Shown here: piece by piece, positions 27,549 to 57,268 of the stretch
Layout of the letters: the number at the start of each line of letters is the position of its first letter
Numbering within the stretch: position 1 is the first letter of the stretch
Assembly (NCBI GenBank): GCA_018677555.1
Contig: JAHHOT010000072.1
Location: 4,737-68,736 of the forward strand
Reading direction: 5' to 3'
DNA from: Gammaproteobacteria bacterium
GTDB taxonomy: Bacteria; Pseudomonadota; Gammaproteobacteria; Steroidobacterales; Woeseiaceae
Length of the DNA stretch: 64,000 nucleotides
Program-made: the position numbers and the translations under genes
Notes under the pieces: model-generated
The model's database searches: none
Told to the model about the DNA's origin: nothing
Seen by the model: the letters and a program-made list of their open reading frames with translations, nothing else

Positions 27549-28418
27549 TCAGTCGAGAAGATCGTCGTTGCGATTCTCGCCTTTCCGGGCGGCGTAGTGG
27601 ACGGGAAGTGCCCGGCCGTAAAGCTGCATGGCACGTTCGACTTTCGCCACCATTCCCGGCCGGTCGACGAATGAGAAAATACCGACGTAGCGGCGGCGCT
27701 GTCCCTGCACGGCGGTAACACGATGCAGCGAGTAACGACCCTTGAAGATTTGCAGATCGCCGGGATTCAATTGCAGGCTTCGAACCAGGCCATGGTCGCC
27801 ATCGAGGATAGCCTGGACCCCTGCGTAGTTCTCCGCCGCGGCCGAACGCAGGTTCGGGACGTATTCGAACAGCCCACCAGCCTCTCCGTTTTGTATGGAC
27901 AGCGTCACGGTGTAATTGTTGGTATCGAAGTGCCATGGAAACCCGCTGCCATGCTCGACGACGTTGATGATAACGTCCGCCAGAGGGTCCGCATAGCGAT
28001 GGAAACTGCGCTCTTCAAGCGCATCCCGGATAAACGCCATGAGCGGCGGCCACTCGTAGAGGGCGCGCAATGGACTCTGCGCAGCGAAATTGTCGGCCGG
28101 CACGAACGCATTCGAGCGATCGTAAAAACGCCGCACCGGATGCGCCCGTGGCAGCGACTCGTCATCGCGCGTGAAATAGGCATTGGTCCGGTTGAATGAA
28201 CGGTGTGCGTGGGGAGCCACTGAATCAGCTTCTTCGACGAGCGCGGGAACGTGTTGCGCCCGGATGAAGCCGGGCACTACGGCACAACCGACCGAACGCA
28301 GCTCGTCCCGCAATCGGCTGATTAACTGTGTGTAAGTGGCGGAGCTGATATTGCCGATCGGATAGCGTTCGGTGTCAACATAATCCTGTGCAAGTAACAT
28401 CGGGCAATACCCCGTCAA
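27549..28418 (-). CDS. Fe(II)/2OG-dependent oxygenase-like protein (HxD type, so a predicted hydroxylase rather than a halogenase)
   Basis: FPWHFDTNNY (HxD) and a distal GRYSLHRV His, with a jelly-roll-like C-terminal half. The family subtype is not resolved by eye. Confidence 0.55.
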   Translation of the reverse strand: MTGYCPMLLAQDYVDTERYPIGNISSATYTQLISRLRDELRSVGCAVVPGFIRAQHVPALVEEADSVAPHAHRSFNRTNAYFTRDDESLPRAHPVRRFYDRSNAFVPADNFAAQSPLRALYEWPPLMAFIRDALEERSFHRYADPLADVIINVVEHGSGFPWHFDTNNYTVTLSIQNGEAGGLFEYVPNLRSAAAENYAGVQAILDGDHGLVRSLQLNPGDLQIFKGRYSLHRVTAVQGQRRRYVGIFSFVDRPGMVAKVERAMQLYGRALPVHYAARKGENRNDDLLD

Positions 28419-31283: not shown

Positions 31284-32021
31284 TCAGCGCTCGAAGTCGG
31301 GCGTGCGCACCTTGGTCTGATGGCCGGCGAAGGTATTGCCCATCTGGTCCTCGCCTTTCATGTAGCTGCGCTGCCAGCCGGCCTTGACGGCCTCTGATTC
31401 CGGTTTCTTGAGGTCTTCGTTGAACTTCAACCGGTCCTCTCGCCATTTCACATACTGGTCATAAAGTTTGCGGTCTTCGTTGATCACTTTCAGCCTGGCC
31501 TGGAACTTGGCGACATAGTGCCGCGGATACGGCACGATCGTGCAAACCGGTTCGCCTTTCTCGAAGCGCACTTTGTGTCGCTTGCGCGTGAACTGCCAGT
31601 TCATCGTGAACGTGAAGGGCGTCCAGTCTGTTTCGATCAGGCCTTCCAGTGCAGCGATACCGTCTTTAGGACAGTTCGTCGGTCCCTTGACCCAGATATT
31701 GTGCGACTTGCTGGTGCGGAACAGGTAGCCCAGCGAGAATGTAAGCACGCCGTGCCCGAAATGCGACCCAACCAGCGGTGACGCGGGCCCGTCGAAACTG
31801 ATTCGAATGGCATCAAGCCCGTCCTTGCCGTTCCACCTGGCGGTAAACGACGCCGGACAAAGTATGTCCCAGCCCACCTGGTTGGCCATCGAGAGAGGCA
31901 GGCAGCGATAGGCAAAGCGGTCCTGCGTGTCGTCCATCCACTGGCGGCGTCGATGCGCCGTCTGGATGGGCATTGGCTCCTCGACGACCTCGTATGCGGT
32001 GATCTCCAGCTTGTCCTTCAC
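31284..32021 (-). CDS. conserved hypothetical protein (tentatively DUF6065-like)
   Basis: GTG start at 32021 with GAGGGA upstream. FAYRCLPLSMANQVGWDILCP block. No signal peptide and no catalytic motif recognised. Confidence 0.5.
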   Translation of the reverse strand: MKDKLEITAYEVVEEPMPIQTAHRRRQWMDDTQDRFAYRCLPLSMANQVGWDILCPASFTARWNGKDGLDAIRISFDGPASPLVGSHFGHGVLTFSLGYLFRTSKSHNIWVKGPTNCPKDGIAALEGLIETDWTPFTFTMNWQFTRKRHKVRFEKGEPVCTIVPYPRHYVAKFQARLKVINEDRKLYDQYVKWREDRLKFNEDLKKPESEAVKAGWQRSYMKGEDQMGNTFAGHQTKVRTPDFER

Positions 32022-33515: not shown

Positions 33516-33701
33516 CGTTGTTCTCCTTCGTCGTGAGCCGATTGCCGGCCCGGTGCCGGATCGTCTGCAGCGGATACGGTAGACGGCAATGTTCACGTGC
33601 GTATCACCGCGGCGACGGCGGTCTGTGATATTTGCGTGATATCCGGGGTCTATTCTTTACCGGCAGATGCGAAGCGCCTGACCCATGCGGAGCCCGGCGG
33701 C

Positions 33702-34424
33702 ATGAAAAACAAGAAAATCCTCGTGGTTGAGGACGAACAGGATATTGCCGATCTGTTGCTGTTACACCTCGCCGACCTCAGCGACGACGTCGAACTGGCG
33801 GCCGACGGTCACGCAGGGCTACGGCTGGCAACGTCCCGCCACTGGGACCTGATCGTACTCGACCTGCGGCTACCCGGACCGGACGGCCTGGAGATTTGCC
33901 GTGCGGTGCGCCTTAAGGACACCTACACGCCTATCCTGATGCTGACCTCGAAGTCGTCGGAACTCGACCGCGTACTTGGACTCGAGTTGGGCGCCGACGA
34001 CTACATGACCAAGCCGTTCAGCGTGCTGGAACTGATGGCCCGGGTCCGCGCCATATTTCGCCAGGTAGAAGCCATCGAAAACGAGTCACGGTTTTCGACG
34101 GACCGGATACGCATCGGCCCGCTGCTGATCAATTCCGCCGCACGGGTCGTGAAAAAGGGCGACGACCAGGTCGACCTTACGGCACGCGAATTCGACCTGC
34201 TGTTGCACTTCGCGACGCATCCGGGCCGCGTATTCCGCCGCTCCGAACTCCTCGACCGTGTGTGGGGTCACGGCCACGAAGGCTACGAACATACGGTCAA
34301 CTCACACATCAACCGGCTGCGCTCGAAGATCGAGGACAACCCTGCCGACCCTGCCTGCATCGTTACCGTCTGGGGCGTCGGCTACAAGCTCGATGACTCC
34401 GGAATGAGGGAGTCAACGCGATGA
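33702..34424 (+). CDS. OmpR-family two-component response regulator
   Basis: ORF 33597..34424; I prefer ATG 33702 (MKNKKILVVEDEQDIADLL). Receiver Asp in LIVLDLRLPG. Winged-helix C-terminus (LTAREFDLLLHFATHPGRVFRR..., VWGVGYKL). Confidence 0.9.
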   Translation: MKNKKILVVEDEQDIADLLLLHLADLSDDVELAADGHAGLRLATSRHWDLIVLDLRLPGPDGLEICRAVRLKDTYTPILMLTSKSSELDRVLGLELGADDYMTKPFSVLELMARVRAIFRQVEAIENESRFSTDRIRIGPLLINSAARVVKKGDDQVDLTAREFDLLLHFATHPGRVFRRSELLDRVWGHGHEGYEHTVNSHINRLRSKIEDNPADPACIVTVWGVGYKLDDSGMRESTR

Positions 34425-35902
34425 GGACGCTGTACGCCAAACTGTCCTTCGCGATGATTGCGATCATCGCAATCGTCGGCGCCGGATTTGTGGTCATCTA
34501 CCAGGCAGCGACAACGCTCTACTACGAAGAACTGACGCAGCGCCTCAACGCGCCGATTGCCATGTACGTGACCGGCGAACAAGCGCTCATGCGTCCCGAC
34601 GGCGCTGTCGATCAGGCGGCACTGAAAGAACTGGCGCACCGAGCGATGATCATCAATCCCGCGATAGAGGTTTACCTTCTGGACGCGAACGGGCGGATAC
34701 TCGGCCATGCCTTGCCGCCGGAGTCCGTGCTCCTGAACCAGGTATCCGTTCAGCCGGTGCAGCGCTTGATCGAAGGCAATGTCGAGATGCCGTTCAAGGG
34801 CGCTGACCCACGGAATCCCGCGCGGGACAAGATTTTTTCAGCCGCGGAAGTCCGTAGCGACGACGGCGTGCTACTCGGGTACCTGTATGTCGTCCTGGGC
34901 GGCCAGAAGTATGACGAGCTGGTGACCACGCTACAGGGAAGCTACGCAAGAGATCTCGGTGTCTGGGCAATCCTGGCGCTGACGATGCTCGCGGCCGGCA
35001 TCGGGGTCGTTGCGTTCGGCTTGTTGACGCGCCGGCTGCGCAAGCTGACGTTGACCGTGCAGCAATTTGGCGACGGCAACTTCGAATCGGCCCTGCCGGA
35101 CGCCGAACCGGGTCGCGGTAACGACGAAATCGATCAGCTGGACACCACGTTTCGCGCCATGGCGGTGCGCATCAGCGATCAACTCGACCGCCTCAGGGAA
35201 ACCGACCGGCTGCGACGCGAGCTCGTCACCAACGTGTCGCATGACCTGCGAACGCCGCTGGCATCGATGCAGGGCTACCTGGAGACCCTGCTGATCAAGA
35301 ACGGCTCGTTATCGGATGTCGAAAGAGAGCGTTGCCTCAGCATCGCGAGAAAAAACACGCAACGGCTTGGCGAACTCGTGGACGACCTGTTCGAGCTGTC
35401 CAAGCTCGATTCGGCGAGCGTCACCCCGGTATTCGAGTCGTTTTCCCTCGCCGAGCTGCTGCAGGACACGGCGCAGGAATTCGAACTGCACGCCCGCGAG
35501 AAGAATATCGACATAGAGATCGCTGCCCCGGCAGATGCCACGCAGGTTTACGCGGATATCGGCCTTATCCAGCGCGTTCTCGAAAACCTCATCCGCAATG
35601 CCATCCAGTTCACTTCCGCCGACGGGCACATACGGATAACGGTCGACAAGCTGCCCGAACGCGTTGCAGTTTCCGTCAGCGACGATGGCTGCGGCATACC
35701 GGAATCCGAAATCGGCCGTATTTTCGATCGCTTCTACCACCGGCAGGCCGCGAACAACAGGCGCTCGGGCGCCGCCGGCCTGGGCCTCGCTATCGTGAAA
35801 CGTATCCTGGATCTTCACGGCAGCCGCATCACGGTGACCAGCGAAGTCGATCGCGGCACGCGCTTCGAATTCGACCTCCCGGGGAAGCAGCTGGCGGCCT
35901 AA
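34421..35902 (+). CDS. sensor histidine kinase (periplasmic sensor, HAMP, HisKA, HATPase_c)
   Basis: ATGA overlap with the regulator gene. Two TM segments, H-box VSHDLRTPLASMQGYLE, and N/G boxes (LIRNAIQFT, DDGCGIP, GLGLAIVKRI). Confidence 0.9.
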   Translation: MRTLYAKLSFAMIAIIAIVGAGFVVIYQAATTLYYEELTQRLNAPIAMYVTGEQALMRPDGAVDQAALKELAHRAMIINPAIEVYLLDANGRILGHALPPESVLLNQVSVQPVQRLIEGNVEMPFKGADPRNPARDKIFSAAEVRSDDGVLLGYLYVVLGGQKYDELVTTLQGSYARDLGVWAILALTMLAAGIGVVAFGLLTRRLRKLTLTVQQFGDGNFESALPDAEPGRGNDEIDQLDTTFRAMAVRISDQLDRLRETDRLRRELVTNVSHDLRTPLASMQGYLETLLIKNGSLSDVERERCLSIARKNTQRLGELVDDLFELSKLDSASVTPVFESFSLAELLQDTAQEFELHAREKNIDIEIAAPADATQVYADIGLIQRVLENLIRNAIQFTSADGHIRITVDKLPERVAVSVSDDGCGIPESEIGRIFDRFYHRQAANNRRSGAAGLGLAIVKRILDLHGSRITVTSEVDRGTRFEFDLPGKQLAA

Positions 35903-35928: not shown

Positions 35929-36549
35929 TTAGAGCGTGAGCTCCGATACGTCGCGATAGTTGCCGATCTTGCCCTTGATAAAACAGTTGAATGCGATCGA
36001 GTATCGCGGCTCGCTCGACGTGTTGGTCTCGACCAGGTGCTGTAATCCGGACGAGAACAGGATCACGTCGTTGCGCTTCGGCTCCACGATATTGGCCGGC
36101 GTGTTGTAGATGTTGCGCTTTTCCGTCTGCGGCGGCAGCTCCAGTTGCTGGTAGGAACGATGCTTCTCGAAGATCATGCGCGCAACGGGCGACGGAAGGT
36201 CCGTGTAGTACAGTGAGCCTGATACCAGCGAATTGGAATGTGAATGCCCGTGCATACCGACGTTCGGGCTGTTGATAAGAGACCAGGACTGGGTGACGTA
36301 GAGCTTCTGGCTGATGCCCATCACCTCGCTGGCATAGATATCCAGCGTTTCCTGAATCGCGTTCTTGATACTGGCCATCTCCGGTTCTTCGAAGATATAC
36401 AGGTTTTCGGAGATCAGGTTGCTCTGGTTGCGCACCATCTTCAGGTTCTTGATGTATTCGACCTGCGCCTCGCTGATGGCATGGCCAATATTTGCGCGCA
36501 TGTACGGCTCGGCGAAAAGGGGTTCGATGTGGTAGTTCTCTGGGGCCAT
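35929..36549 (-). CDS. 2OG-Fe(II) oxygenase-superfamily protein, TIGR02466-like (tentative); paralogue of 26784..27455
   Basis: GMHGHSHSNSLVSGSLYYTD and VILFSSGLQHLVETN blocks. GC looks visibly lower than in the neighbouring genes. Confidence 0.6.
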   Translation of the reverse strand: MAPENYHIEPLFAEPYMRANIGHAISEAQVEYIKNLKMVRNQSNLISENLYIFEEPEMASIKNAIQETLDIYASEVMGISQKLYVTQSWSLINSPNVGMHGHSHSNSLVSGSLYYTDLPSPVARMIFEKHRSYQQLELPPQTEKRNIYNTPANIVEPKRNDVILFSSGLQHLVETNTSSEPRYSIAFNCFIKGKIGNYRDVSELTL

Positions 36550-38254: not shown

Positions 38255-38734
38255 ATGATCAAACGGCTGTTCGAGCAGGTAATGCAAACGCTTTCGGAGG
38301 GTGAATCGGCAGACTCCTCGCGCGGCGATCGCGAAGCGGCGCTGCGCATGGCCACCGCCGTGCTGATGATCGACGTCGCGCTGGCCGACAATCTCTTCGA
38401 CGAAGCGGAACTGGACCGGGTGCTCGATCTGATCGAGGCGAACTTCGGGCTCACCCCGCAGGAAGCGGCCGAACTCACCAACGCAGCTACCGAGAAAGCC
38501 GAAGAACTGGTATCGCTGCACGAGTTTACCCAGCTACTGCACCAGAACCTCAGCGAAGCCGAAAAAGCCCGAATCGTCGGCTTGTTGTGGCAAATCGCCT
38601 ACGCGGACGGCGAACTCGACAAATTCGAGGACGCGCTCGTGCTCAAGATCAGCGATCTGCTGTACGTCAGCCGCGGCCGGGTCATGCGCCTGAAACACGA
38701 TGCGGGTGTCGCCGCTAACGTGCCGGAAGCCTGA
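38255..38734 (+). CDS. TerB-family (tellurite-resistance TerB / DjlA N-domain-like) protein
   Basis: Paired acidic-helix pattern: AVLMIDVALADNLFDEAE... and LLWQIAYADGELDKFEDALVLKISDLL. Confidence 0.7.
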   Translation: MIKRLFEQVMQTLSEGESADSSRGDREAALRMATAVLMIDVALADNLFDEAELDRVLDLIEANFGLTPQEAAELTNAATEKAEELVSLHEFTQLLHQNLSEAEKARIVGLLWQIAYADGELDKFEDALVLKISDLLYVSRGRVMRLKHDAGVAANVPEA

Positions 38735-38930
38735 GCCACCTCGAACCCGCCGTCGTCACCTCAGGGTGCCGCGCCATTCAATTGAAACCTCCTTGTGCCG
38801 ATCGATGGAATTGAACGCGAGCGGACCCCGGCAAAACGCAACTTTCTGACCAAATGTACTAAACTCGACCGCAAGTCCGCGCTACGACGGACCGGGTACA
38901 TAAAGAATCAATCATCAGGGGAAACAGCAG

Positions 38931-40268
38931 ATGTCGGTCTACGAGCAGAACGCCAGCGACAAGCCCAGGCGTATTTTCCTTTCGTACAGCAGCGCCGATC
39001 GCCTGCGAACCTCGGGCCTGGCGTTGCTGCTGGAAGCAATGGGACACCAGGTGTTTCACGACCACCGCACGATAAAGCCGGGGATGCGCTGGGAGGCTGC
39101 GTTGCAGGACGGGCTCGACGATGCGAACGCGGTCATGGTGTTCTGGACGCGTCACGCGTCGAAGTCCGACTGGGTGCGAAAGGAGTACGAATATTTTCTG
39201 AGCCGCTACCCGGATCGGATACTGGTGCCCGTGCTCGGCGACGAAACACCGTTGACGGAAATGCTCAAGACGCGACAGCAGGCGGACTTCGTGCCCGTGG
39301 TCAACGAGGTGCTGGAAAAAAAGCGCGACATGAAAAAGGAAGGCGCAAGCGCCAGGGAGATCGAGGCGGCGGTCGCCGAAAGCCTCAGGAAAAACGGCGT
39401 CGAGATGAAATCGAAACACCAGCGGCGGATGTTGTTCCTGTTCCTGGGTTTCGGCTGGCTTCTTACATTACTGCGCTTCCCCTGGTCCTGGCTACAATCG
39501 TCCGGCGGCAAGGCGGTCGAGGCAACGGCGCAGGCGTCCGTTGGGCAGATCGCCGTGATAGCCGCCGCGGGCGTCATCGGCATGGGTGCTGCGGTACCGA
39601 CGGCGAAGTCGATGTTGGAGAAGCAGATGCCGTCGGACGTCATTGAGGCCGCCAAGGTCAATGAAGTGCTTCTGCGCGAGAACGATGAGCTCCGACAGAA
39701 CAATCTGGCGCTCAGGGCGATGGAAGGGAGTCTCGCGGCAATGCAGACAGCCATCAACAAACTCGGCAAGCAGGTGGACGAGCTCGAGTTGAAGGGTCCG
39801 TCTCAGGCCGCCTGCGTATCGCCCGAACAATTCAACAGCTGCCAGACCGGCATCCAGAACGCACGCACTGATCTCACCGGACAGTTGCGGAATCTGTCCG
39901 GGCGGCTCGACCTGATCGAACGCCAGACTGCGAGCGCCGGAGAAGTGGGCAAAGTGACGGCGGAGGTCGTTGAGTCCGGGATACAGGGTTTCGGCGACTG
40001 CGCGGCCAAACCACAACCCGAAGCCCAGCCTGAGCCGGATTACCCGCGGCGGGCGCGTATCGACGGTGTCGAAGGCAAGGTCCTCGTAGCGGCAGAAATC
40101 GATGCGGACGGCGGTGTTACCAATGTGACGGCGGACGGCGAGTCGCCGATACTCAACCAGGCGGCAATCGACGCCGTTCGGCGATGGACCTTCACGCGTT
40201 GCGAGGTCGATGGCGAGGCGGTGCCGGCAGCGTTCAAGGTAAGTATCGATTTCAGCCTCCACAACTAA
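38931..40268 (+). CDS. TIR domain - transmembrane - coiled coil - TonB C-terminal domain fusion protein
   Basis: aa 13-105 RIFLSYSSADR...VMVFWTRHASKSDWVRKEYEYF (TIR_2-like; SxWVxxE with Glu85 at nt 39183-39185). Hydrophobic aa 164-185 (MLFLFLGFGWLLTLLRFPWSWL) and Ala/Gly-rich aa 203-222. Leu/Gln-rich helical region. AKPQPEAQPEPD linker. aa 369-443 PDYPRRARIDGVEGKVLVAAEIDADGGVTNV...LNQAAIDAVRRWTF...VSIDFSL (TonB_C pattern). Confidence 0.75.
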   Translation: MSVYEQNASDKPRRIFLSYSSADRLRTSGLALLLEAMGHQVFHDHRTIKPGMRWEAALQDGLDDANAVMVFWTRHASKSDWVRKEYEYFLSRYPDRILVPVLGDETPLTEMLKTRQQADFVPVVNEVLEKKRDMKKEGASAREIEAAVAESLRKNGVEMKSKHQRRMLFLFLGFGWLLTLLRFPWSWLQSSGGKAVEATAQASVGQIAVIAAAGVIGMGAAVPTAKSMLEKQMPSDVIEAAKVNEVLLRENDELRQNNLALRAMEGSLAAMQTAINKLGKQVDELELKGPSQAACVSPEQFNSCQTGIQNARTDLTGQLRNLSGRLDLIERQTASAGEVGKVTAEVVESGIQGFGDCAAKPQPEAQPEPDYPRRARIDGVEGKVLVAAEIDADGGVTNVTADGESPILNQAAIDAVRRWTFTRCEVDGEAVPAAFKVSIDFSLHN

Positions 40269-40289: not shown

Positions 40290-41675
40290 ATGAAAAAGCG
40301 AATTCCGCTCATCGTTGCGGTCCTGGCACTGGCGGTGGTGATCGCGATCGGGCTCATTGACCGGTACTCGCCGCGTTACGATGCCGAATATATTGGTGCT
40401 GCTGCCTGTGGCGAGTGCCATACGCAAATCTACCCGGAATGGCAGCGCTCGCCGCACGCCAACATGTTGCGCAAGCCGGCGCCCAACTCTGTTGTCGGCG
40501 ACTTCGACAATGCGTCCTGGACCCTGCCGCCCGCTGCGCGTCGTTTGCCGGTGGATTCAGAGCCGGCGGCGCGCATGTACGCGCGAGAAGGCAGCTGGTA
40601 CATGGATTTGCGAGAACCGGCCAGCGATTCCTTCCGCACCTTCCGGATTGATTACGTCGTTGGCTACCAGTATCGCCAGGTTTACCTGACCCGCGAGGAC
40701 GGCGGAGTATTGCGTCGCCTGCCGCTGCAGTGGTCGGTGCCGCGCCAGGAATTTTTTCCGTACTGGAACCTGCAGGAGAAAAGCACACCGACCGTACCGG
40801 ACCTATGGGCGCAAATGACGTCGCAAAACTCCGCGTGGAACCTCTTTTGTGCGCGTTGCCACACGACCCATCTCGTCATCAACAGAAAAAATGCCAATCA
40901 CACCGTGGCTGACGTCGAGTGGGCCGACGACGGAATCGCTTGCGAAGCCTGCCACGGGCCGGGCAGCCTGCATGCAAAGTATTTCGAAAGCAATTACCTG
41001 AATCGAATCTCTCAATGGATCAACAGCAATTTGCGCGGTGATCCCGTTGCGTACATTGCGAGCGCCGGGAAACTGAACAAGGGCGAGGCGATGAGTGTGT
41101 GCGCCCGCTGCCATGGCGCGGACATCTACATGTCCGGCACTGACGTTTACCGCAGCTACGAGCCCGGCTATAGCCGAACAGGCCACACCAACGACCTGTC
41201 GGCGTACTTCGAGTCCGCTCCGCTGACACCGTCCCGCAACATCCCGACGCTGGAAACCTGGTCCGACGGGGAGCCGAAGGGCATCGGCATGCTGTTCCGC
41301 TCCCTCATCGAATCCGAGTGCTACCGGCAGGCGGAAGTTCGCTGTTACGACTGCCACAATCCGCACGACAACAAGCAGGCAGCGAAGCCGGGACTTTTGT
41401 TCCCTTCGGAAGCCAGCAACGATTACTGTCTTGGATGTCACGAAGATCTGCGCGAGCGCGTCGCAGAGCACACGCGGCACGAACCGGATTCGCCGGGCGC
41501 CTACTGCTACGATTGCCACATGCCGAAAATCATTACCAAGCTGGCGACCGGTGAACTTGAATTGACCCGGACACACCGCATGAGCCTGATCCCGGGCGCG
41601 CACGACGAATGGCAGCCCGGGAACGCACCGAATGCCTGCCTCTCCTGTCACGGTCTCGATGCGCCGGCGCTGTAA
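40290..41675 (+). CDS. membrane-anchored multihaem (8 x CXXCH) c-type cytochrome
   Basis: N-terminal anchor MKKRIPLIVAVLALAVVIAIGLI. Eight haem-binding motifs: CGECH, CARCH, CEACH, CARCH, CYDCH, CLGCH, CYDCH, CLSCH. The start lies 21 nt after the TIR-TonB_C gene. Confidence 0.85.
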   Translation: MKKRIPLIVAVLALAVVIAIGLIDRYSPRYDAEYIGAAACGECHTQIYPEWQRSPHANMLRKPAPNSVVGDFDNASWTLPPAARRLPVDSEPAARMYAREGSWYMDLREPASDSFRTFRIDYVVGYQYRQVYLTREDGGVLRRLPLQWSVPRQEFFPYWNLQEKSTPTVPDLWAQMTSQNSAWNLFCARCHTTHLVINRKNANHTVADVEWADDGIACEACHGPGSLHAKYFESNYLNRISQWINSNLRGDPVAYIASAGKLNKGEAMSVCARCHGADIYMSGTDVYRSYEPGYSRTGHTNDLSAYFESAPLTPSRNIPTLETWSDGEPKGIGMLFRSLIESECYRQAEVRCYDCHNPHDNKQAAKPGLLFPSEASNDYCLGCHEDLRERVAEHTRHEPDSPGAYCYDCHMPKIITKLATGELELTRTHRMSLIPGAHDEWQPGNAPNACLSCHGLDAPAL

Positions 41676-41708: not shown

Positions 41709-43253
41709 TTGAAGGCCCCGACATTTCTGCTGCTTGCCCTGGCGCCGCTCATCGGCAGTGCGCAGGCTGTGGTCGACATCGATGTCGTCGACGGGCCGGT
41801 CACGAACATACTGACCTCGGGTCAACCACTGTCACTGTCCATTCGCGTGCGCGGCGCCGGGCGCGATGCAGGCAAGGGACTGAGTTACGAATGGCGGGAC
41901 TTTCGCGGCAACGCGGTGAGCCCGGGAACGCCGTTGGGCAGCGGCACGACCGAGGTAACGGCACCGACGGCAAAACCCGGCTACCTCGGACTGGCATTCG
42001 TTGCCGACGATCCGGATGTGCGAATAAATCCCTCGACCGGCCTGCGCCAGGAACTCGGCTTCGTGTTCGTCCCATCGGCGAACCCGCCCGCGCGAGCGGC
42101 CGGTTCACCGTTCGGCATCGTGCATCCCGACCTCGATGACCCGAATATGCCCACCTGGGTCAAGACCCTGACGTGGAATACGACCAGCGCCCGATACTGG
42201 CCGGACGAAATCGCGAAACGGCGCGATGCCGGATATCACGAGCTGCCGCTGGTCTCCGGCAACGGGTGGGCCGGCGACGACAGCAGCAACATCGCAGACG
42301 CGCAACTCGATGAGCTCTCGTCACGTTTCGGCACCTATATCAGTGCGGATCCGAATGTGCGCTACTGGGAACTCGGTCGCGAGGAGAACCTCGGCAGGCG
42401 CTTCGAGCAAAGCGCATATTTTGACAACCTCGCGGCGAAGGCGGCAGCGCTGCGGCGGGCGGCTGTCGAGCGCGGAATTTCCGTGAAATTCATATATCAA
42501 ATCGGCGGCAGGAGCCTGACCGATGCCCGCAAATTCTTCGCCAGCGATGCAGCGGAGGAATTCGACATCGTGGCCCCGCATCCGTATTACTGGCCGGAAT
42601 TTCCGACACCCGAGAAATGGCTCGCCCGTTTCATCGGGGACCGCAGGGCCGCGATGCAGGAAAACGGCCTCGACATGCCAATGTGGTTCACCGAGATCGG
42701 CGCGCCACAGAATGATGCCAGGCTACCGACAATGTATTCCGGGCGGCATCCGGTGCCCGGGCACAGGCGCGAGGAAAACGCAGCCTATCTCGTCAAAACT
42801 CACGTAATAGCGCTGGCCAGCGGTGTCGAAAAAGTATTCTGGTACAACTACGTCGACAGGAAACCCGACATCTCCGATGTCGAGGAACATTTCGGCCTTA
42901 TCGACTACTGGGGATATCCGAAACCGGCCTATGCTGCCTACGTGACAACATTGCGCTGCATTGGTAACAAACGACCGGCGGCCCGGAGCACTGCAGCCGG
43001 GTTACATGTATACCGATTCAGCGCGGCCGGCGAACACTGCGTCGTACTGTGGTCGCACCCGGATGCCGCAGCCACCGTTTCGTTTCAGTCGATCATCGAA
43101 GGCGTTCCCGCAGCAAAGATCGACTCTATATCCGATACGGTCGGTGCACCAATGACTGCCGGTGACGCGCTTGAAATTGACGGATACCCGGTGTTTTTGC
43201 GAATGACCAGCGAGACAGCCGCGAAGGACTCAGTCAGCGATTCTCCAGACTGA
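41709..43253 (+). CDS. secreted TIM-barrel glycoside hydrolase-like protein (clan GH-A; GH39/GH5/PslG-like, subtype unresolved)
   Basis: TTG start per the ORF track. Signal peptide MKAPTFLLLALAPLIGSAQA. Candidate acid/base in YWELGREEN and nucleophile in MWFTEIGAP. FWYNY block, with beta-sandwich-like N- and C-terminal regions. Confidence 0.6.
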   Translation: MKAPTFLLLALAPLIGSAQAVVDIDVVDGPVTNILTSGQPLSLSIRVRGAGRDAGKGLSYEWRDFRGNAVSPGTPLGSGTTEVTAPTAKPGYLGLAFVADDPDVRINPSTGLRQELGFVFVPSANPPARAAGSPFGIVHPDLDDPNMPTWVKTLTWNTTSARYWPDEIAKRRDAGYHELPLVSGNGWAGDDSSNIADAQLDELSSRFGTYISADPNVRYWELGREENLGRRFEQSAYFDNLAAKAAALRRAAVERGISVKFIYQIGGRSLTDARKFFASDAAEEFDIVAPHPYYWPEFPTPEKWLARFIGDRRAAMQENGLDMPMWFTEIGAPQNDARLPTMYSGRHPVPGHRREENAAYLVKTHVIALASGVEKVFWYNYVDRKPDISDVEEHFGLIDYWGYPKPAYAAYVTTLRCIGNKRPAARSTAAGLHVYRFSAAGEHCVVLWSHPDAAATVSFQSIIEGVPAAKIDSISDTVGAPMTAGDALEIDGYPVFLRMTSETAAKDSVSDSPD

Positions 43254-47896: not shown

Positions 47897-49141
47897 CTAG
47901 TTGGTCAGCCGGCCGTCAAGGAACCGCCGGTCGATGACATCCAGCACCCGCTTGCAGGACTGGCCGTCTGTATAGGTGTTGAATCGCCGGCGAATCGCTG
48001 ACCACTGCGCGTCGCGATCGTCGTCGATTGCGCTTCCGCTCGCGGCGTCGCGCAATGCACTGAGCATTTGCTTGCCGTCGTGACAAACCGGCCCGACGGC
48101 AATTTGCTGCGGGTCGAATATGAGTGAGCGGCTTGAGCTCGAAAAGTCCGCAAGATCCGGCATGTAGTAGACGATTGCCCGCTCCAGCAGCATGAAGTCG
48201 AAGATGATCGATGAATAATCACTGATCAGCGTGTTCGTCATGGCCATCAGCCGGTAGATGTCCGATCCCTGCTCCAGCTCGTGAACGTGATGACCCTTGC
48301 CGCAAAACGTGCTTTCGTCGTCCGGGTGAAACTTGAAGAAGAAGCTGCCGTTCACGCTGTCCATGAGCTCGTCGAGCTCAGCCCAGTCGACATCGAAATA
48401 CGCCGCGCCACTGTCGCGGTAGGTTGGCAGGTACATGAATACATGGCGACCACCATTCAATGCGTCCTGAAACGCCGGCGGCACGCTGGCGTCCACCGCC
48501 GAGCCGCTTCCGAACAGGACGTCGTTGCGCGGATAGCCGGTAACTACGCTGACGTCGGGCTCAAGGTCGAATGCACGGTCCGTAATTCGCGCGGTTTCCG
48601 GCGAGGTCGCGATAATCATGTGCGGTCGATGCACGTGCCACGGCATCATGACCGACAGCAGTGCACGCTCGGGCCAGGTGCCGTGGAAAAGCCGGTAATA
48701 GCGACTGTCCCGAGTTGCGATGTCTCGCTCGAATGCCTTGAGAGGGACACCGCTCCACAAGTTGATTCGCCTGGCGCCCCGGCAGGTCCAGAAATTGATG
48801 TCCTTGGAGAATGAATCGAAAAGATACAATCCGGCACGCAGGCAGCACCCGATGCCGCGTGGCGACCAGATCCAGTGTGCTTCCACACCCCGCGCCGAAA
48901 GCTGCTCAACAATGTGTTTTTCGCGAGAAATCCAGACCAGGCGAATTCGGTCGGACACCTTCTCCTGGCAATAGTTGAAGAATGCGGCGCTGTTGTCGGC
49001 GAAGCGGTAACCGCCCCAGGAGCCGAATACCCACAAATCGTCCCGCCGGGGTACGAAGCCGCTGACCAGGTAAATCGGGAATAAATACAGACGTGCCAGG
49101 AGGAGCAGGGCATAGCCGGTGAAGCGTCGCAATGTTTTCAT
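47897..49141 (-). CDS. CDP-glycerol glycerophosphotransferase family protein (TagB/TagF-like)
   Basis: N-terminal membrane-associated helix, then WVFGSWGGYRFADNSAAFFNY, YLPTYRD, FKFHP and LISDYSSIIFDFMLLERAIVYY blocks characteristic of the Glyphos_transf family. Confidence 0.8.
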   Translation of the reverse strand: MKTLRRFTGYALLLLARLYLFPIYLVSGFVPRRDDLWVFGSWGGYRFADNSAAFFNYCQEKVSDRIRLVWISREKHIVEQLSARGVEAHWIWSPRGIGCCLRAGLYLFDSFSKDINFWTCRGARRINLWSGVPLKAFERDIATRDSRYYRLFHGTWPERALLSVMMPWHVHRPHMIIATSPETARITDRAFDLEPDVSVVTGYPRNDVLFGSGSAVDASVPPAFQDALNGGRHVFMYLPTYRDSGAAYFDVDWAELDELMDSVNGSFFFKFHPDDESTFCGKGHHVHELEQGSDIYRLMAMTNTLISDYSSIIFDFMLLERAIVYYMPDLADFSSSSRSLIFDPQQIAVGPVCHDGKQMLSALRDAASGSAIDDDRDAQWSAIRRRFNTYTDGQSCKRVLDVIDRRFLDGRLTN

Positions 49142-49257
49142 TCTTGTTGGACGAATCCTTGCAGACTGAACGGTCGAGTTGTTTTAATGGTTGAGATCCG
49201 CGGAGAATAACACCAGCGGTTGCCGCAAGTCCGGGAAAAAAAATAAAGGACGTCAAC

Positions 49258-50442
49258 GTGCAAAATTCGCCGGCCCGGAGCAACGTGGCCAACCCAGGTC
49301 TACTCCGCGTCGTGCATTTGTTTCGCACGCCCGTCGGCGGATTGTTCCGTCACGTTTGCGACCTGGCGGGGGAACAGAGCAGGCTGGGATACGATGTCGG
49401 CATCGTCTGCGATTCCTCTACCGGTGGCGCTCGCGCCGATGATGCTCTTGCGGCACTGGCGGCGTCATGCACCCTCGGCGTGCATCGCCTGCCCATACGG
49501 CGCCTGCCGGGCCCGTCGGACCTTCACACCGGGCGCGCGGTTAGCCGGATTCTCGCCCGATTGCGGCCGGATATCGTGCATGGCCACGGCGCGAAGGGCG
49601 CGGCGTTCGGTCGGCTGCTGGCGCGGCGAGTCGGCGCCAGGGCAATTTACACGCCACACGGCGGTTCGTTGCATTATTCCCGCTCGACGATCGCGGGATT
49701 GCTTTTTCTCGGCGCTGAGCGTTTGCTCCTGGCCCGAACTGACGGTGCGATCTTCGAGAGCAACTACACGGCGGGAGTGTTCGTTGAAAAGATCGGGCAA
49801 CTCCCCTGCCCGTCCAGCGTGATTCACAACGGTATTCGCGACGACGAGTTTCTTGACAACGACGTGGCGGCGGAATTCGACTTTGTATACGTCGGGGAGA
49901 TTCGTGAAATCAAGGGAATCCTGACGCTGATGGATGCGATCAGCCGCCTTGCGGATCGTGCTTCCTTCTCAGTTGCCATCGCAGGCGACGGCGAACTGAA
50001 GCCGGCTATCAAGCAGCGCATCGCAGCGGAGTCGCTCGACGCAACCGTGACGCTCATGCCGCCGGTCTATCCAGCGACGACCATCATTCGCAAGGCACGC
50101 TGCATTGTGGTTCCGTCGCTGGCCGAGTCGCTGCCCTATATCGTATTGGAGTCTGTAGCAGCGGGTGTGCCGGTCCTCGCAACGAACGTGGGTGGCGTTC
50201 CGGAGATTTTCGGTTCTTACAGCAGGAATCTGCTACCCGCCGGCGACAGTACCGCACTTGCCGATGCAATGCTTTCGAGGTTGCAAAACCCCGAATCGTA
50301 TGACGAAATAACCGCCGCCATGCGCGAACACACCCGACATAATTTCAAATTGAGCGACATGGTGCAGCAGACGCTGCAGTTCTACGACGAGGTATTATGC
50401 GGTAGCGGCAGCCGGGTAAGGCCCGCCGTCAATCGACGTTGA
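49258..50442 (+). CDS. glycosyltransferase family 4 (GT-B, Glycos_transf_1)
   Basis: LLRVVHLFRTPVGG N-terminal domain. C-terminal PSLAESLPYIVLESVAAGVPVLATNVGGVPEI (EX7E-type). GTG start. Confidence 0.85.
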   Translation: MQNSPARSNVANPGLLRVVHLFRTPVGGLFRHVCDLAGEQSRLGYDVGIVCDSSTGGARADDALAALAASCTLGVHRLPIRRLPGPSDLHTGRAVSRILARLRPDIVHGHGAKGAAFGRLLARRVGARAIYTPHGGSLHYSRSTIAGLLFLGAERLLLARTDGAIFESNYTAGVFVEKIGQLPCPSSVIHNGIRDDEFLDNDVAAEFDFVYVGEIREIKGILTLMDAISRLADRASFSVAIAGDGELKPAIKQRIAAESLDATVTLMPPVYPATTIIRKARCIVVPSLAESLPYIVLESVAAGVPVLATNVGGVPEIFGSYSRNLLPAGDSTALADAMLSRLQNPESYDEITAAMREHTRHNFKLSDMVQQTLQFYDEVLCGSGSRVRPAVNRR

Positions 50443-51487
50443 CCCGGCGAAAGCGGTTCGACAGCGCAAATGGCAGACCGCTCAGGAACAGCTTGACGTA
50501 CTTCAGGCGCTGGTAATCCCCGTTCAGCGAGACGCGCGGCAGCGCGTGCAGGTGATCGGCGTGCTCCGCGAAGACCACACCCTTGCGCGTTGTCACCGCG
50601 GTGGCAAAACCGAGGCGCGCGGCGACGTCGAACTCCCTGGGCCCGGCGGAAGCGGCGTCCCCGTATGGATACGCGGCATGCGCCGGCCGGACGCCGGCGT
50701 TCTTCTCGATATCATCGACATTCTGCTCGAATTCGCGCGACACGTCGGCTGCAGCGAGCTTGCTGAGGGCCCGGTGGCTTTCGGTATGAGCGCCAACGGT
50801 CAAAAGCCCGCTGTCATGCATTTCGCGCACCATGGCCCAGGTCAGCGGTCTGTTGTCTGTCGGCGAGCCCTGGTCGTGTTCCGGGTAGCGCTCGCGCAGC
50901 AGCTGCAGCGCGCCTTCCTGCTGCTCCAGGGGCGCCCGCCGTAGTGCCCAGTAAATCTCGTCGAATGCCTGCGCCTTCTGTGCCGTCGTGCCGGTCACCC
51001 GCTCGAATCGTTGCCCGCCAACGGTCATCTCGACGTGGTCCCGGTCCCGAATGGTGTTTTCCAGGTGCTGCCACCACAGGTGCAGGCGCCCGTGCATCAA
51101 CCCGCTACAGAGGTAAACCGTAAACGGCACCTTGTGTTTCCTGAAGATCGGCCAGGCATGCAGGTAGTTATCTGCGTAGCCATCGTCCAGCGTAAAGCTG
51201 ACGAAGCGCCGCCCGTTACCGCCGCGGACGAGGCGCCTACGGAACTCGTCCAGCGAAACGATGTCAATGTTCAGGTCACGTGCCAGTGCGATGACCGCGT
51301 CGAGGAATTCGGGCGAGATGTTCAGTATGCGATTGGGCGAGAAAGGAGCGTCCTGTTGCTGCGGCGTAACGTGATGCAGTGTCAGCAAAACGCCGCGACC
51401 ACTGAACCTTTTCCTGAACAGGTGGTACATACCGCTGTGGTACAGCCCGTTCAGGGCCAGCTTAAGGAGCGACGTTGTATGCGACAT
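50429..51487 (-). CDS. polysaccharide deacetylase family protein (CE4)
   Basis: FTLDDGYADNY (DD metal/catalytic motif) and GAHTESH block. The 3' end overlaps the convergent GT4 gene by 14 nt. Confidence 0.8.
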   Translation of the reverse strand: MSHTTSLLKLALNGLYHSGMYHLFRKRFSGRGVLLTLHHVTPQQQDAPFSPNRILNISPEFLDAVIALARDLNIDIVSLDEFRRRLVRGGNGRRFVSFTLDDGYADNYLHAWPIFRKHKVPFTVYLCSGLMHGRLHLWWQHLENTIRDRDHVEMTVGGQRFERVTGTTAQKAQAFDEIYWALRRAPLEQQEGALQLLRERYPEHDQGSPTDNRPLTWAMVREMHDSGLLTVGAHTESHRALSKLAAADVSREFEQNVDDIEKNAGVRPAHAAYPYGDAASAGPREFDVAARLGFATAVTTRKGVVFAEHADHLHALPRVSLNGDYQRLKYVKLFLSGLPFALSNRFRRVNVD

Positions 51488-51681
51488 AATCTGGCTTTAT
51501 GTGCCACTGAAAAAAAATCGTCTTTATGACCCGATAAATCCCGAAATAAATATTTCATCGTTGAGCGCACTTGCGCTTACTCGAACTATACGTTGAAATT
51601 GAAAGGTTCGAAATGAAGCATTGTTCGTGCAGCGTACCCGCACGCGCAACGACTTAAAAAACAAGAAACCCGGAACAACAA

Positions 51682-53148
51682 ATGGTAGCAAACCTGGGCG
51701 AGTCAACCGGCCCACTCATTCAACGTCACAAGAATCACCGGATTCTTTCGGAAAGTATTACTGCAGGCCTCGTAATCCTGCTCGACGCCGTGACAATTCT
51801 CGTTGTTGGCTGGCTGATTTATGCGTTCTACCTGACTGCCGTTCCCGAACCGGATGCCTTCGTTCGCTACACCACGATACTGGTGATAGTTGCGTACCTG
51901 GTCGTGCAGTCGTTTTACCTGGCCGGCCTGTACAGCTTTGATGCCATCGTGACCCCGACACAACAGATCGGCAAAATCCTGTCCATATCCTCCGTCGTGT
52001 TCCTGGTCCTGGTGGCTGCGGGCTTCGCGCTCAAAATATCCGATGATTACTCCCGGGTGTGGGTGTTCAGCACGGCGATATCGGTAGTCGTGTTGCTGTG
52101 CGTGATGCGTGCAATTGTTGTAAGTATCATTCGCCGTCTCGCCAGGCGGGGCTACCTCGCACACAATATTCTCATCTACGGCGCCACGGAACAGGCGCAG
52201 CGTTTCATCGAGCAGCTGAACCAGATCAACGCACCCTGGAACCGAATCATCGGGATTTTCGACGACCGGCACTCAGCGCACAAAAACGTGATCGCCGGCG
52301 TAAACGTCGAGGGTGGGCTGCAGGAGCTTGTCGAGTGTGCGAGAAAAACACGCGCCGACGAAGTCGTCATTGCACTGCCGTGGGGCGATCAGCGGCGTGT
52401 CAGTGAAATCCTGCAGGTAATGAAGGTTCTGCCGACCAACATCCGGCTGAGTCCCGATCTCGCCAGCATGCGCATACTGAGCGGCACCATCAATTACCAG
52501 TATGGCGTGCCGCTTGCGTCAGTCTACGAAAAGCCGATATCCGGCTGGCAAAACGTCGAAAAACGCGCGTTCGATATCCTTGTCAGCTCGACCATGTTGC
52601 TGCTGTTGTCGCCGCTGATCGCCCTGCTGTGTGCCGGCGTCAAGCTGGACAGCCCTGGCCCGGTCTTTTTCCGCCAGCGCCGCTACGGATTCAACAACGA
52701 GTTAATCAAGATCTGGAAGCTTCGCACCATGTACGTCGACCAGCAGGACGAGAAGGCGGAGCGCCTTGCGACGCCGGACGACCCGCGCGTTACGAAATTC
52801 GGTTCATTTCTTCGCCGCTCGAGCCTCGACGAGTTGCCGCAACTTTTCAACGTGTTACATGGCGACATGTCGCTGGTCGGGCCGCGTCCGCACGCGCTGC
52901 AAGCCAAAGCGGCCGGACAGCTTTACCAGGATGCGGTTGGCGAGTACGCCGCCCGCCACCGGGTAAAACCCGGACTGACCGGCTGGGCCCAGGTCAACGG
53001 CTGGCGCGGAGAAACCGATACGCATGAGAAGATCGTCAAGCGTGTCGAGCACGATCTCTACTACATCGAGAACTGGTCGGTCGGGCTGGACATTCGCATC
53101 CTGTTGCGAACCGCCGTGGTGCTGTTCAAACAGGAAAACGCCTACTAG
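51682..53148 (+). CDS. undecaprenyl-phosphate sugar phosphotransferase (WbaP/WcaJ-type EPS priming enzyme)
   Basis: Four or five N-terminal TM segments, a central Rossmann-like domain, and a C-terminal Bac_transf domain (KRAFDILVSSTMLLLLSPL..., PGPVFFRQRRYG, LDELPQLFNVLHGDMSLVGPRP). Confidence 0.9.
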   Translation: MVANLGESTGPLIQRHKNHRILSESITAGLVILLDAVTILVVGWLIYAFYLTAVPEPDAFVRYTTILVIVAYLVVQSFYLAGLYSFDAIVTPTQQIGKILSISSVVFLVLVAAGFALKISDDYSRVWVFSTAISVVVLLCVMRAIVVSIIRRLARRGYLAHNILIYGATEQAQRFIEQLNQINAPWNRIIGIFDDRHSAHKNVIAGVNVEGGLQELVECARKTRADEVVIALPWGDQRRVSEILQVMKVLPTNIRLSPDLASMRILSGTINYQYGVPLASVYEKPISGWQNVEKRAFDILVSSTMLLLLSPLIALLCAGVKLDSPGPVFFRQRRYGFNNELIKIWKLRTMYVDQQDEKAERLATPDDPRVTKFGSFLRRSSLDELPQLFNVLHGDMSLVGPRPHALQAKAAGQLYQDAVGEYAARHRVKPGLTGWAQVNGWRGETDTHEKIVKRVEHDLYYIENWSVGLDIRILLRTAVVLFKQENAY

Positions 53149-53168
53149 CGATTCTGCTTCAGGGAGCG

Positions 53169-55957: not shown

Positions 55958-55959
55958 TG

Positions 55960-57222: not shown

Positions 57223-57268
57223 TGCTTGTGACGTTTTCGTTTAGTTTACGAGCCGCAGCCGCCACTAG

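Follow-up and report, generated by a model that had tools for sequence, protein, structure and literature searches.

The bacterial TIR systems known so far sense intracellular events, i.e., nucleic acids, phage proteins or second messengers, and TIR NADases require self-assembly for their activity. The gene dealt with here would take such a domain to the cell envelope. It lies at 38931..40268 on the forward strand of a window of 64,000 nucleotides (the whole stretch that was analysed, positions 4,737 to 68,736 of contig JAHHOT010000072.1 from a gammaproteobacterium of the Woeseiaceae), and it encodes, in one polypeptide, a TIR domain, a membrane module, a helical stalk and a TonB_C domain. With the bacterial TIR NADases and defence TIRs (AbTir, BtpA/TcpB, PdTIR, TIR-SAVED and ThsB) the product shares the flavodoxin-like TIR_2 fold and the WxxxE motif with its invariant Glu. 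Unlike them, it has no SAVED, STING, Sir2/ThsA, cyclase or Argonaute domain or partner, and none of those systems joins an N-terminal, membrane-tethered TIR to a periplasmic TonB_C domain. We tentatively read the protein as a stand-alone TIR sensor-effector that would be anchored in the inner membrane and span the envelope, a reading to which we give somewhat less than an even chance. Its novelty can be put in two equivalent ways, as a TIR effector whose sensor or anchor is of a new, periplasmic kind, or as a TonB_C protein whose cytoplasmic output is new.

Two TIR-based defence systems come close enough to require a direct comparison. TIR-SAVED, whose activity depends on oligomerisation, supplies the nearest defence profile to the window TIR in PADLOC (E=5e-10). 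Identity with this CBASS system was nevertheless rejected: the match to SAVED_TIR takes in positions 11-153 of a profile of 404, which is its TIR part only, and there is neither a SAVED domain in the protein nor a cyclase gene next to it. As regards Thoeris, the ThsB_TIR profile scores 17.9 bits against a cut-off of 21.2 and the NCBIfam Thoeris model 37 against 220, and ThsA is absent among the neighbours, so that an identification as ThsB was likewise rejected. At the other end of the molecule, the obvious relative is TonB, with which the C-terminal two-thirds of the protein share their overall plan: an anchor in the membrane is followed by an extended spacer in the periplasm and, at the C-terminus, by TonB_C with a YP motif (TM-score 0.80 between the C-terminal domains). 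The differences are as clear: a cytoplasmic TIR of 165 residues stands in place of the short N-terminus of TonB, the SxxxH/SHLS anchor motif is absent, ExbBD/TolQR were not found linked to the gene, and the spacer is mainly helical, with just an 11-residue Pro/Glu/Gln run against the long Pro-rich rod of TonB. In this respect the stalk recalls domain II of TolA, which is also a long helical spacer.

Sensing at the envelope has precedents of another kind. Zorya, Kiwa and SNIPE are anti-phage defences based on envelope surveillance (PMC13434031). The concept of envelope sensing at the inner membrane followed by a cytoplasmic effector is common to Zorya ZorAB (with its peptidoglycan-binding periplasmic domain), Kiwa KwaA, SNIPE and the protein described here; there is, however, no sequence relationship, and those systems consist of several genes or use nuclease or DNA-binding effectors, whereas here a single polypeptide carries a TIR. 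In the amoeba protein TirC, a transmembrane tether restrains a filament-forming TIR NADase, and the removal of the tether unleashes filaments and cell death (PMC13142454). Toll-like receptors (TLRs) and TirC resemble the window protein in combining a TIR in the cytoplasm with a membrane anchor and a domain on the far side of it, with swappable sensors on a constant TIR. Toll-like receptors differ from it in their polarity, which is the opposite (the window TIR is N-terminal, in a type-II orientation), and in their leucine-rich repeats, which the window protein lacks; their TIRs, in turn, are not known to have the enzymatic Glu that the window TIR has. The likeness to TLRs and TirC is thus one of design and not of descent, with no homology beyond the TIR fold.

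No description of a TIR-TonB_C protein was found in the literature searched, and the databases carry nothing but the label 'TonB family protein'; an architecture lacking a described precedent is also what the original prediction, made from the sequence of this locus, had proposed. That label is attached, for instance, to an entry identical to the window protein (P0001, from a gammaproteobacterial metagenome-assembled genome, MAG), and it should be corrected, given that it is used despite the absence of the features of an energy transducer. Beyond annotation, a TIR physically linked to a TonB-type domain in the periplasm would bring envelope surveillance within the reach of TIR signalling, and would be a bacterial counterpart of the TLR logic of extracellular sensor, membrane and cytoplasmic TIR. 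One gene with a fixed output and swappable inputs would also make a test bed for the transmembrane switching of TIR assembly, as well as for roles of TonB_C beyond energy transduction. The relevance is therefore to bacterial immunity and to TonB biology, the context evidence for immunity being thin.

A TIR domain and a TonB_C domain on one polypeptide

The open reading frame comprises 445 codons plus the stop and runs uninterrupted from ATG to TAA, and both the start Met and the N-terminus MSVY(D/E)Q are kept among its homologues. The gene and its parts are the following.

38917..38922, forward strand: ribosome-binding site AGGGGA, 8 nt 5' of the ATG, read from the sequence
38931..40268, forward strand: complete gene for TIR, membrane module, helical stalk and TonB_C (open reading frame list and translation)
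38973..39293, forward strand: TIR_2 domain, residues 15-121 (Pfam PF13676, PDB profile matches, Foldseek)
39171..39185, forward strand: W81-V-R-K-E85 (WxxxE), with the putative catalytic Glu codon at 39183-39185 (alignment with PdTIR and BtpA)
39294..39425, forward strand: conserved helical linker, residues 122-165, with the basic cluster KSKHQR at its end (AlphaFold2 model and conservation)
39426..39482, forward strand: hydrophobic segment H1, residues 166-184, RMLFLFLGFGWLLTLLRFP, candidate membrane anchor (hydropathy)
39483..39542, forward strand: conserved H1-H2 loop, residues 185-204, motif VE(K/A)TAQ (conservation)
39543..39596, forward strand: hydrophobic segment H2, residues 205-222, GQIAVIAAAGVIGMGAAV, Ala/Gly-rich, second membrane candidate (hydropathy)
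39597..39941, forward strand: helical stalk, residues 223-337, with long helices at 235-284 and 298-337 around Cys295 and Cys304 (AlphaFold2 secondary structure and periodicity)
39813-39815 and 39840-39842, forward strand: codons of Cys295 and Cys304 (sequence)
39942..40028, forward strand: flexible linker, residues 338-366, with Cys357 and the Pro/Glu/Gln run KPQPEAQ (sequence, low to moderate model confidence)
40029..40259, forward strand: TonB_C domain, residues 367-443, with the YP motif (Y371, P372) and Cys424 (PF03544, TIGR01352, Foldseek)

The N-terminal end, which the original prediction had taken for a TIR_2-type domain with the usual Glu at position 85, matches Pfam PF13676 over residues 15-121 with E=1.1e-19 and 71.5 bits against a cut-off of 28, and the fold probably extends to about residue 150. 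In an AlphaFold2 model of the window protein, built on an alignment of 31 homologues, this part shows the alternating beta-alpha elements of a flavodoxin-like fold at a per-residue confidence (pLDDT) of 60-83. A Foldseek search of the PDB matches it to the solved bacterial TIRs BtpA (4c7m/4lzp), AbTir (7uxu) and PdTIR (3h16), with probability 1.0 and target-normalised TM-scores of 0.53-0.64, and the same three proteins, PdTIR, BtpA and AbTir, are retrieved from the PDB by a sequence profile of the N-terminal module. In the profile alignment, W81-x-x-x-E85 is matched to the W..E of PdTIR and BtpA. All 60 aligned family members have W81, V82 and E85 without exception, which bears out the conservation of Glu85 among the relatives, and the position of E85 is what we take to be that of the catalytic Glu of TIR NADases. 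By this catalytic signature the window TIR would be of the NAD-cleaving type, its activity being putative.

The C-terminal end had been proposed to be a TonB_C domain, and this has held up as well. Residues 367-443 match PF03544 with E=1.6e-17 and 64.1 bits against a cut-off of 24.6, and the NCBIfam model tonB_Cterm (TIGR01352) with 42.9 bits against 27.1; the domain is modelled with a pLDDT of 85-94. Its fold resembles that of the TonB C-terminal domain bound to the receptor FoxA (6i97_D in the PDB, TM-score 0.80, root-mean-square deviation 1.9 A, by Foldseek), with further matches to the TonB C-terminal domains 1u07, 6fip and 9dc4_T. Y371 and P372 of the YP motif are at least 90% conserved. 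Between the membrane module and this domain, the prediction of a helical Leu/Gln-rich segment followed by a Pro/Glu/Gln linker corresponds in the model to the helices at 235-284 and 298-337 and, in the sequence, to an 11-residue run, KPQPEAQPEPD, immediately N-terminal to TonB_C. Ala, Leu, Glu and Gln are abundant in the tail. The stalk helices show a 3.5-residue (heptad-type) periodicity above that of shuffled sequences (p ~0.045 for one helix and ~0.015 for the other), and the stalk is probably a coiled coil. Cys304 is kept in 30 of the 31 members of the TonB_C type although the identity in the stalk is only 22%, whereas Cys295, Cys357 and Cys424 are limited to the clade of the window protein (11 of the 31). 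Cys304/Cys295 might form a disulfide between chains or give the stalk a redox-sensitive site.

Such a textbook TonB_C domain, with its YP motif and a fold equal to that of receptor-bound TonB C-terminal domains, could be taken as the mark of a true TonB paralogue, that is, of an energy transducer working with an unlinked ExbB-ExbD and bearing the N-terminal TIR as a regulatory add-on. The label 'TonB family protein' in the source databases points the same way, as does the fact that exbBD genes are often unlinked from tonB. We consider this very unlikely all the same. SxxxH was not found in 59 of the 60 members when residues 160-224 were scanned (one has it), and neither H1 nor H2 of the window protein contains a His, the nearest being His163, which immediately precedes H1. 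The full-length TonB equivalog models of NCBIfam are missed (the best, NF008082, gives 37 bits against 265, from the C-terminal domain only), and a helical stalk replaces the Pro-rich rod. ExbB, ExbD, TolQ and TolR were not seen among the annotated neighbours, either at 18-58 kb of the window or at the other loci. Moreover, the same N-terminal module carries tails that are not of the TonB type. The protein is accordingly a member of TIR_2 and of TonB_C at the level of its domains and stands outside the TonB energy-transducer family, because SxxxH is absent in 59/60, the equivalog models fail and there is no Pro-rich rod. The claims that the membrane helix has no His and that the protein is unlike a canonical energy transducer are in agreement with the absence of a His from both segments and of SxxxH, and with ExbBD not having been found linked, although the last point is not decisive.

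The fusion recurs. About 30 further clusters, at 37-64% full-length identity, were found in the homologue search to combine PF13676 with PF03544, and they come from MAGs of Gammaproteobacteria, Gemmatimonadota (one of them on a 4.1-Mb chromosome) and Acidobacteriota. The architecture is not due to chance, because the same fusion is present in ~30 independent clusters and is under purifying selection.

Exchangeable tails and the topology of the membrane module

The unit formed by the TIR, the linker, H1, the loop and H2 is also found in a sister group of proteins of 270-400 residues and in some longer ones. Pfam scans gave TIR_2 in 60/60 members of a first set and 36/37 of a second, and TonB_C in 31 of the first 60. 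What follows the module is therefore not always TonB_C: there are single cases of WSC, VWD, CARDB, VWA and WD40 tails (Pfam), as well as Cys-rich tails lacking a Pfam match (12 Cys in L015, 6 in L019). Distant, longer branches end again in TonB_C (P0073, 928 aa; P0075, 843 aa), and P0011 has two copies of it. WSC, VWD and CARDB are domain types from outside the cytoplasm, and the swapping of tails with extracellular-type domains argues for a periplasmic C-terminus. Individual tails of the sister family worth recording are those of L015:2875-4206 (12-Cys), L019:7995-9017 (6-Cys), P0052 (WSC) and P0076 (VWA), and that of P0034, which joins a beta-sandwich-like segment to a WD40 propeller; the majority of such tails are without a Pfam match. 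An insert of ~90 aa in P0025, P0027, P0028 and P0030 reads like FN3 in its sequence, which Pfam did not confirm at E<=0.001.

The membrane module itself is strongly conserved. The linker in front of H1 is modelled as two helices (residues 122-136 and 141-154), and its N125, R132 and G138 vary little or not at all in the family alignment. In H1, L170, L172, G173, F174, W176, L180, R182 and P184 are near-invariant among the TonB_C-type members; in the loop, E197 and Q201 are invariant in alignment A1 and E197 and A200 at least 90% conserved in alignment A3; in H2, G205, Q206 and G217 are conserved. The flank before H1 is basic, with a mean of 4.4 Lys/Arg across members, the H1-H2 loop has means of 2.4 Lys/Arg and 1.35 Asp/Glu, and acidic residues prevail in the 15 positions that follow H2 (means of 1.3 Lys/Arg and 2.4 Asp/Glu). 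The protein has no signal peptide. As for Cys, the density in the family is 1.61 per 100 aa in the tails versus 0.38 in the N-module, where the 31 TonB_C-type members have no Cys at all; in the window's clade every tail carries 4.

From these data the TIR would be cytoplasmic and the tail, quite likely, periplasmic. The latter is favoured because of the WSC, VWD and CARDB tails, the distribution of Cys, the retention of Cys304 in an otherwise divergent stalk, the lack of a signal peptide, the basic flank before H1 and the acidic one after H2. A periplasmic tail implies an odd number of membrane passes, and probably either H1 or H2 does not span the membrane and is an interfacial, re-entrant or oligomerisation helix instead. 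Hydropathy and charge counts do not discriminate between the two as the membrane-spanning segment. A hairpin in which H1 and H2 both span, leaving the stalk and TonB_C in the cytoplasm and making of the protein a membrane-associated TIR that does not cross the envelope, would account for the comparable hydropathy of both segments in most members; in the sister family, too, both look like helices of ~18-20 residues joined by a short conserved loop. The two segments of the window protein are similar in hydropathy, and if both spanned, its tail would be cytoplasmic; nor does AlphaFold2 resolve the region, being uninformative over residues 175-229 (pLDDT 33-46). The hairpin is still, in our estimation, highly improbable, since TonB_C is, to our knowledge, known only from the periplasm, and the same module family bears WSC, VWD, CARDB and disulfide-type Cys-rich tails, with Cys four-fold enriched in the tails and absent from all 31 TonB_C-type N-modules, and an acidic flank after H2. 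As to the original prediction, its two hydrophobic segments are both recovered by hydropathy, as H1 at residues 166-184 and the Ala/Gly-rich H2 at 205-222. Its trans-envelope arrangement stands in part: the domain types of the tails and the distribution of Cys favour the periplasmic C-terminus, and the even count of transmembrane segments that would speak against it is contradicted only indirectly.

Distribution, selection and a candidate mechanism

The two halves of the protein differ sharply in conservation. In the alignment, residues 1-210 (TIR, linker, H1, loop and the start of H2) are near-invariant and the remainder is strongly diverged, with a mean pairwise identity of 74% in the TIR, 57% in the membrane module, 22% in the stalk and 37% in TonB_C. 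The ratio of non-synonymous to synonymous substitution (dN/dS, omega), estimated on a restricted set of gene pairs with dS ~0.5, comes to 0.07-0.14 in the N-module and 0.27-0.32 in the tail. The gene is functional, because both of its halves are under purifying selection, the tail being less constrained. Positive selection across the whole periplasmic half was not found (omega 0.27-0.32, from few close pairs). A receptor would be expected to combine a fixed output with a variable input, and such a pattern is suggested here because mean identity is 74% in the TIR but 22% in the stalk and 37% in TonB_C, and because omega is 0.07-0.14 against 0.27-0.32.

The family is small. An exhaustive search of 1.84 billion cluster representatives with the profile of the N-module gave 77 proteins at E<1e-30, ~40 of which span the whole module; one genome per species, over 185,579 species, gave 16 loci whose identity to the module exceeds 40%, all of them in MAGs; and 241 million metagenome records gave ~18 loci. 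The 16 loci belong to Gemmatimonadota, to Acidobacteriota/Thermoanaerobaculia and to several gammaproteobacterial or burkholderial lineages. Two gemmatimonadotal MAGs have two diverged paralogues each (L006/L014 and L008/L013). A side observation on these paralogues is that one of them, of 562 aa, ends in a tandem TonB_C, a sign, perhaps, that the periplasmic end has diversified inside one genome. Another concerns an acidobacterial copy (L007:7347-8000; also P0019 in L050/L051) whose gene call extends ~211 aa further upstream, with three hydrophobic segments; the extension has a coding-like GC at the three codon positions (GC1/2/3 of 0.65/0.49/0.77), yet an RBS-like AAAGGGAAA precedes the conserved ATG, and it may be a true N-terminal membrane extension or a mis-called start.

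How might such a protein work? The analysis shows its domains and their conservation, the modular tails, the lack of partner genes and the rarity of the family; its topology, enzymatic activity, trigger and immune role are what we infer, and the following scheme is offered on those terms. The cytoplasmic TIR would be held at the membrane by the strongly conserved juxtamembrane and membrane module, while the stalk would project TonB_C toward the peptidoglycan and the outer membrane. There, TonB_C might behave like TonB itself and dock on the TonB boxes of outer-membrane receptors, or it might dock on some other envelope partner, possibly peptidoglycan. At rest, tethering would leave the TIRs too dispersed or misoriented to assemble. 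The trigger could be a change in the periplasmic docking or in the oligomeric state, e.g., through distortion of the envelope or the hijack of a TonB-dependent receptor during the entry of a phage or bacteriocin, and the signal would pass through the stalk and the membrane module to bring about TIR clustering. Clustered TIRs could then cleave NAD+, with growth arrest following from its depletion or from an ADP-ribose-derived signal. The scheme would fit because TIR NADases self-assemble, because TIR-SAVED is the nearest defence profile and because the tether of TirC offers a precedent. A wider version, which is possible yet doubtful, would see in the TIR-H1-loop-H2 module a set of modular type-II 'Toll-like' bacterial receptors, with a constant TIR NADase and interchangeable periplasmic sensors of the TonB_C, WSC, VWD, CARDB, VWA, WD40 or disulfide-rich type, whose TonB_C members would watch over the receptors exploited by phages and bacteriocins. 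If true, these would be immune sensors of the outside-in type, made of a single polypeptide and acting before or at genome entry.

The precedent of TirC lends itself to another arrangement, in which the membrane module and TonB_C merely park an auto-active TIR, and proteolysis of the linker frees a filament-forming, NAD+-depleting TIR with no signal crossing the membrane. Activation by cleavage was proposed for TirC (PMC13142454), the conserved linker at residues 122-165 could contain a cleavage site, and genes for M48 peptidases occur nearby in two clades (L050/L007, with LemA, and L052). This arrangement would, however, leave unexplained the purifying selection on the tail (omega ~0.3), the recurrence of TonB_C in distant branches and its replacement by other extracellular domains, and the M48 neighbours are not family-wide; we regard it as improbable. 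The M48 genes in question, which would be relevant only if activation were a proteolytic release, immediately precede the TIR-TonB_C gene in two lineages, at L050:4971-7608 (with LemA) and L052:3170-6331; L060/L061 are of the same clade as L050.

Genomic neighbourhoods and the weighing of an immune role

The gene appears to be self-contained, there being no conserved partner in ~30 loci. An all-against-all BLAST of the neighbours, first over 22 and later over 34 loci, brought up no partner gene common to the family, and the recurrences that it did return were only spurious overlapping reading frames, synteny within a clade and generic two-component proteins. At the other loci the neighbours differ each time, and the gene is mostly preceded by an intergenic region of 200-600 bp. 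The original prediction had raised the possibility that its neighbours in the window, TerB and an octahaem cytochrome, accompany the fusion elsewhere; this did not prove to be the case, both being absent from all the other loci compared and thus specific to the window. A conserved operon with TerB and the multihaem cytochrome was consequently rejected.

The one clear exception to these ordinary surroundings is a gemmatimonadotal island (L048:7154-18743, with the same island in L049 and L010), a tight, co-directional array of the conflict-island type. It holds four consecutive TIR genes, in the order of a 178-aa TIR, the TIR-TonB_C gene, a 372-aa TIR protein and a TIR-TPR-S protein, and a patatin that resembles CBASS-type phospholipase effectors (PADLOC E=9e-46). 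It also contains a PG_binding_1 protein, a 186-aa protein with no assignment and DUF4231 + SLATT_1, with a PLD nearby that gives weak DrmC matches. PADLOC recognised no complete known system in this island. Run over 124 neighbours from 13 loci, a small sample, it gave TIR and phospholipase matches that all come from L048; other matches in that pooled run (RtcR-type regulators, SspA/DndA-like and MzaA) are not tied to a locus and may be generic homologues. The residence of the fusion in defence islands elsewhere, which the original prediction had likewise suggested looking for, is thereby reduced to one of ~15 distinct contexts. Within the island, the 372-aa protein (L048:9364-10482, forward strand) deserves a comment of its own: it is unrelated in sequence and has the same layout, with an N-terminal TIR, one strong transmembrane helix at residues 183-201 preceded by KSRR, and a tail of ~170 aa with two Cys at its end. 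This suggests that membrane-tethered TIRs with outside domains form a broader class.

Taken together with the ambiguous hydropathy and the poorly modelled membrane segments mentioned above, several observations weigh against an envelope-spanning immune sensor. Some ~14 of the ~15 distinct contexts are ordinary housekeeping neighbourhoods, and PADLOC found no convincing match on 10 neighbours in the window. The gene has a GC of 0.614 and a GC of 0.771 at third codon positions, the same as its neighbours in the window, i.e., a native composition. High conservation of the TIR across phyla and an omega below 1 in the tail are atypical of fast-evolving defence genes. No relatives were found on viral contigs, so that a link with phage counter-defence is not visible, and no mobile element was found near the gene. 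Three candidate readings were set aside on the same data: a defence island in the window, since 18-58 kb contain housekeeping genes and an exopolysaccharide cluster and the PADLOC matches are unconvincing; a recent horizontal gain of the gene in this genome, which is unsupported by GC values that match those of the neighbours; and a phage origin, relatives being absent from the viral contigs searched. In favour of the sensor-effector reading are the L048 island, the swappable tails, the invariant W81/E85 and the distant branches with TonB_C.

The same observations can be accommodated by a physiological role in envelope or NAD signalling instead of immunity. A resident sensor might couple the status of the envelope or of TonB-dependent receptors to NAD+ or to a nucleotide signal made by the TIR, or else the TIR might act as a scaffold. 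The housekeeping contexts at most loci would be as expected, as would the native composition, the strength of purifying selection, with the TIR 74% identical across phyla, and the absence of defence genes near the window copy (PADLOC), of mobile elements and of viral copies. We consider this role rather unlikely: the family is rare and patchy (16 of 185,579 species; 77 proteins of 1.84 billion), which is a better fit to an accessory trait; there is no linked reader or effector for the signal; L048 is a clear conflict island; and, for the scaffold variant, the invariant WxxxE argues for catalysis.

In the window, the TerB gene (38255-38734) lies 197 bp upstream of the TIR-TonB_C gene, and the multihaem cytochrome c gene (40290-41675, forward strand) starts 21 bp past its stop, with no forward-strand terminator between the two, which may be co-transcribed in this genome. 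A scan for promoters found nothing upstream on the forward strand, and Rfam elements or riboswitches had no match in the window. No TonB-dependent receptor was found in these surroundings. The cytochrome gene is followed by a 514-aa open reading frame (41709-43253, forward strand) with no Pfam or PADLOC match. Further upstream, the Pfam annotation of 18-58 kb shows a P-type ATPase, Usp, a subtilase, a 2OG-Fe(II) oxygenase and malonyl-CoA decarboxylase, together with genes for a response regulator and a histidine kinase (33597-35902). Downstream, an exopolysaccharide or capsule cluster (47897-58543) encodes a glycerophosphotransferase, GT4, a polysaccharide deacetylase and a sugar transferase, as well as a Wzz-type tyrosine kinase, Poly_export, a BBP2 porin and Wzy_C. 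The locus of the closest homologue (L001) has a Wzy_C-TPR gene and a sulfatase nearby, a likeness to the polysaccharide cluster of the window that is probably coincidental.

Two minor observations concern other neighbours. At L054:8349-10085, beside a sister-family gene in a Halioglobus MAG, there are a DsbA gene directly downstream and, on the opposite strand, a protein with Sel1 and TonB_C, whose proximity to a membrane TIR may be a coincidence. Within 12 kb upstream of the TIR-TonB_C gene in the window, the reverse strand carries two paralogous PF13759 2OG-Fe(II) oxygenase genes (26784-27455 and 35929-36549), a HalD-like halogenase gene (27549-28418) and a DUF6065 gene (31284-32021), and these oxygenases, the halogenase and the DUF6065 gene may make up a small modification or biosynthetic set.

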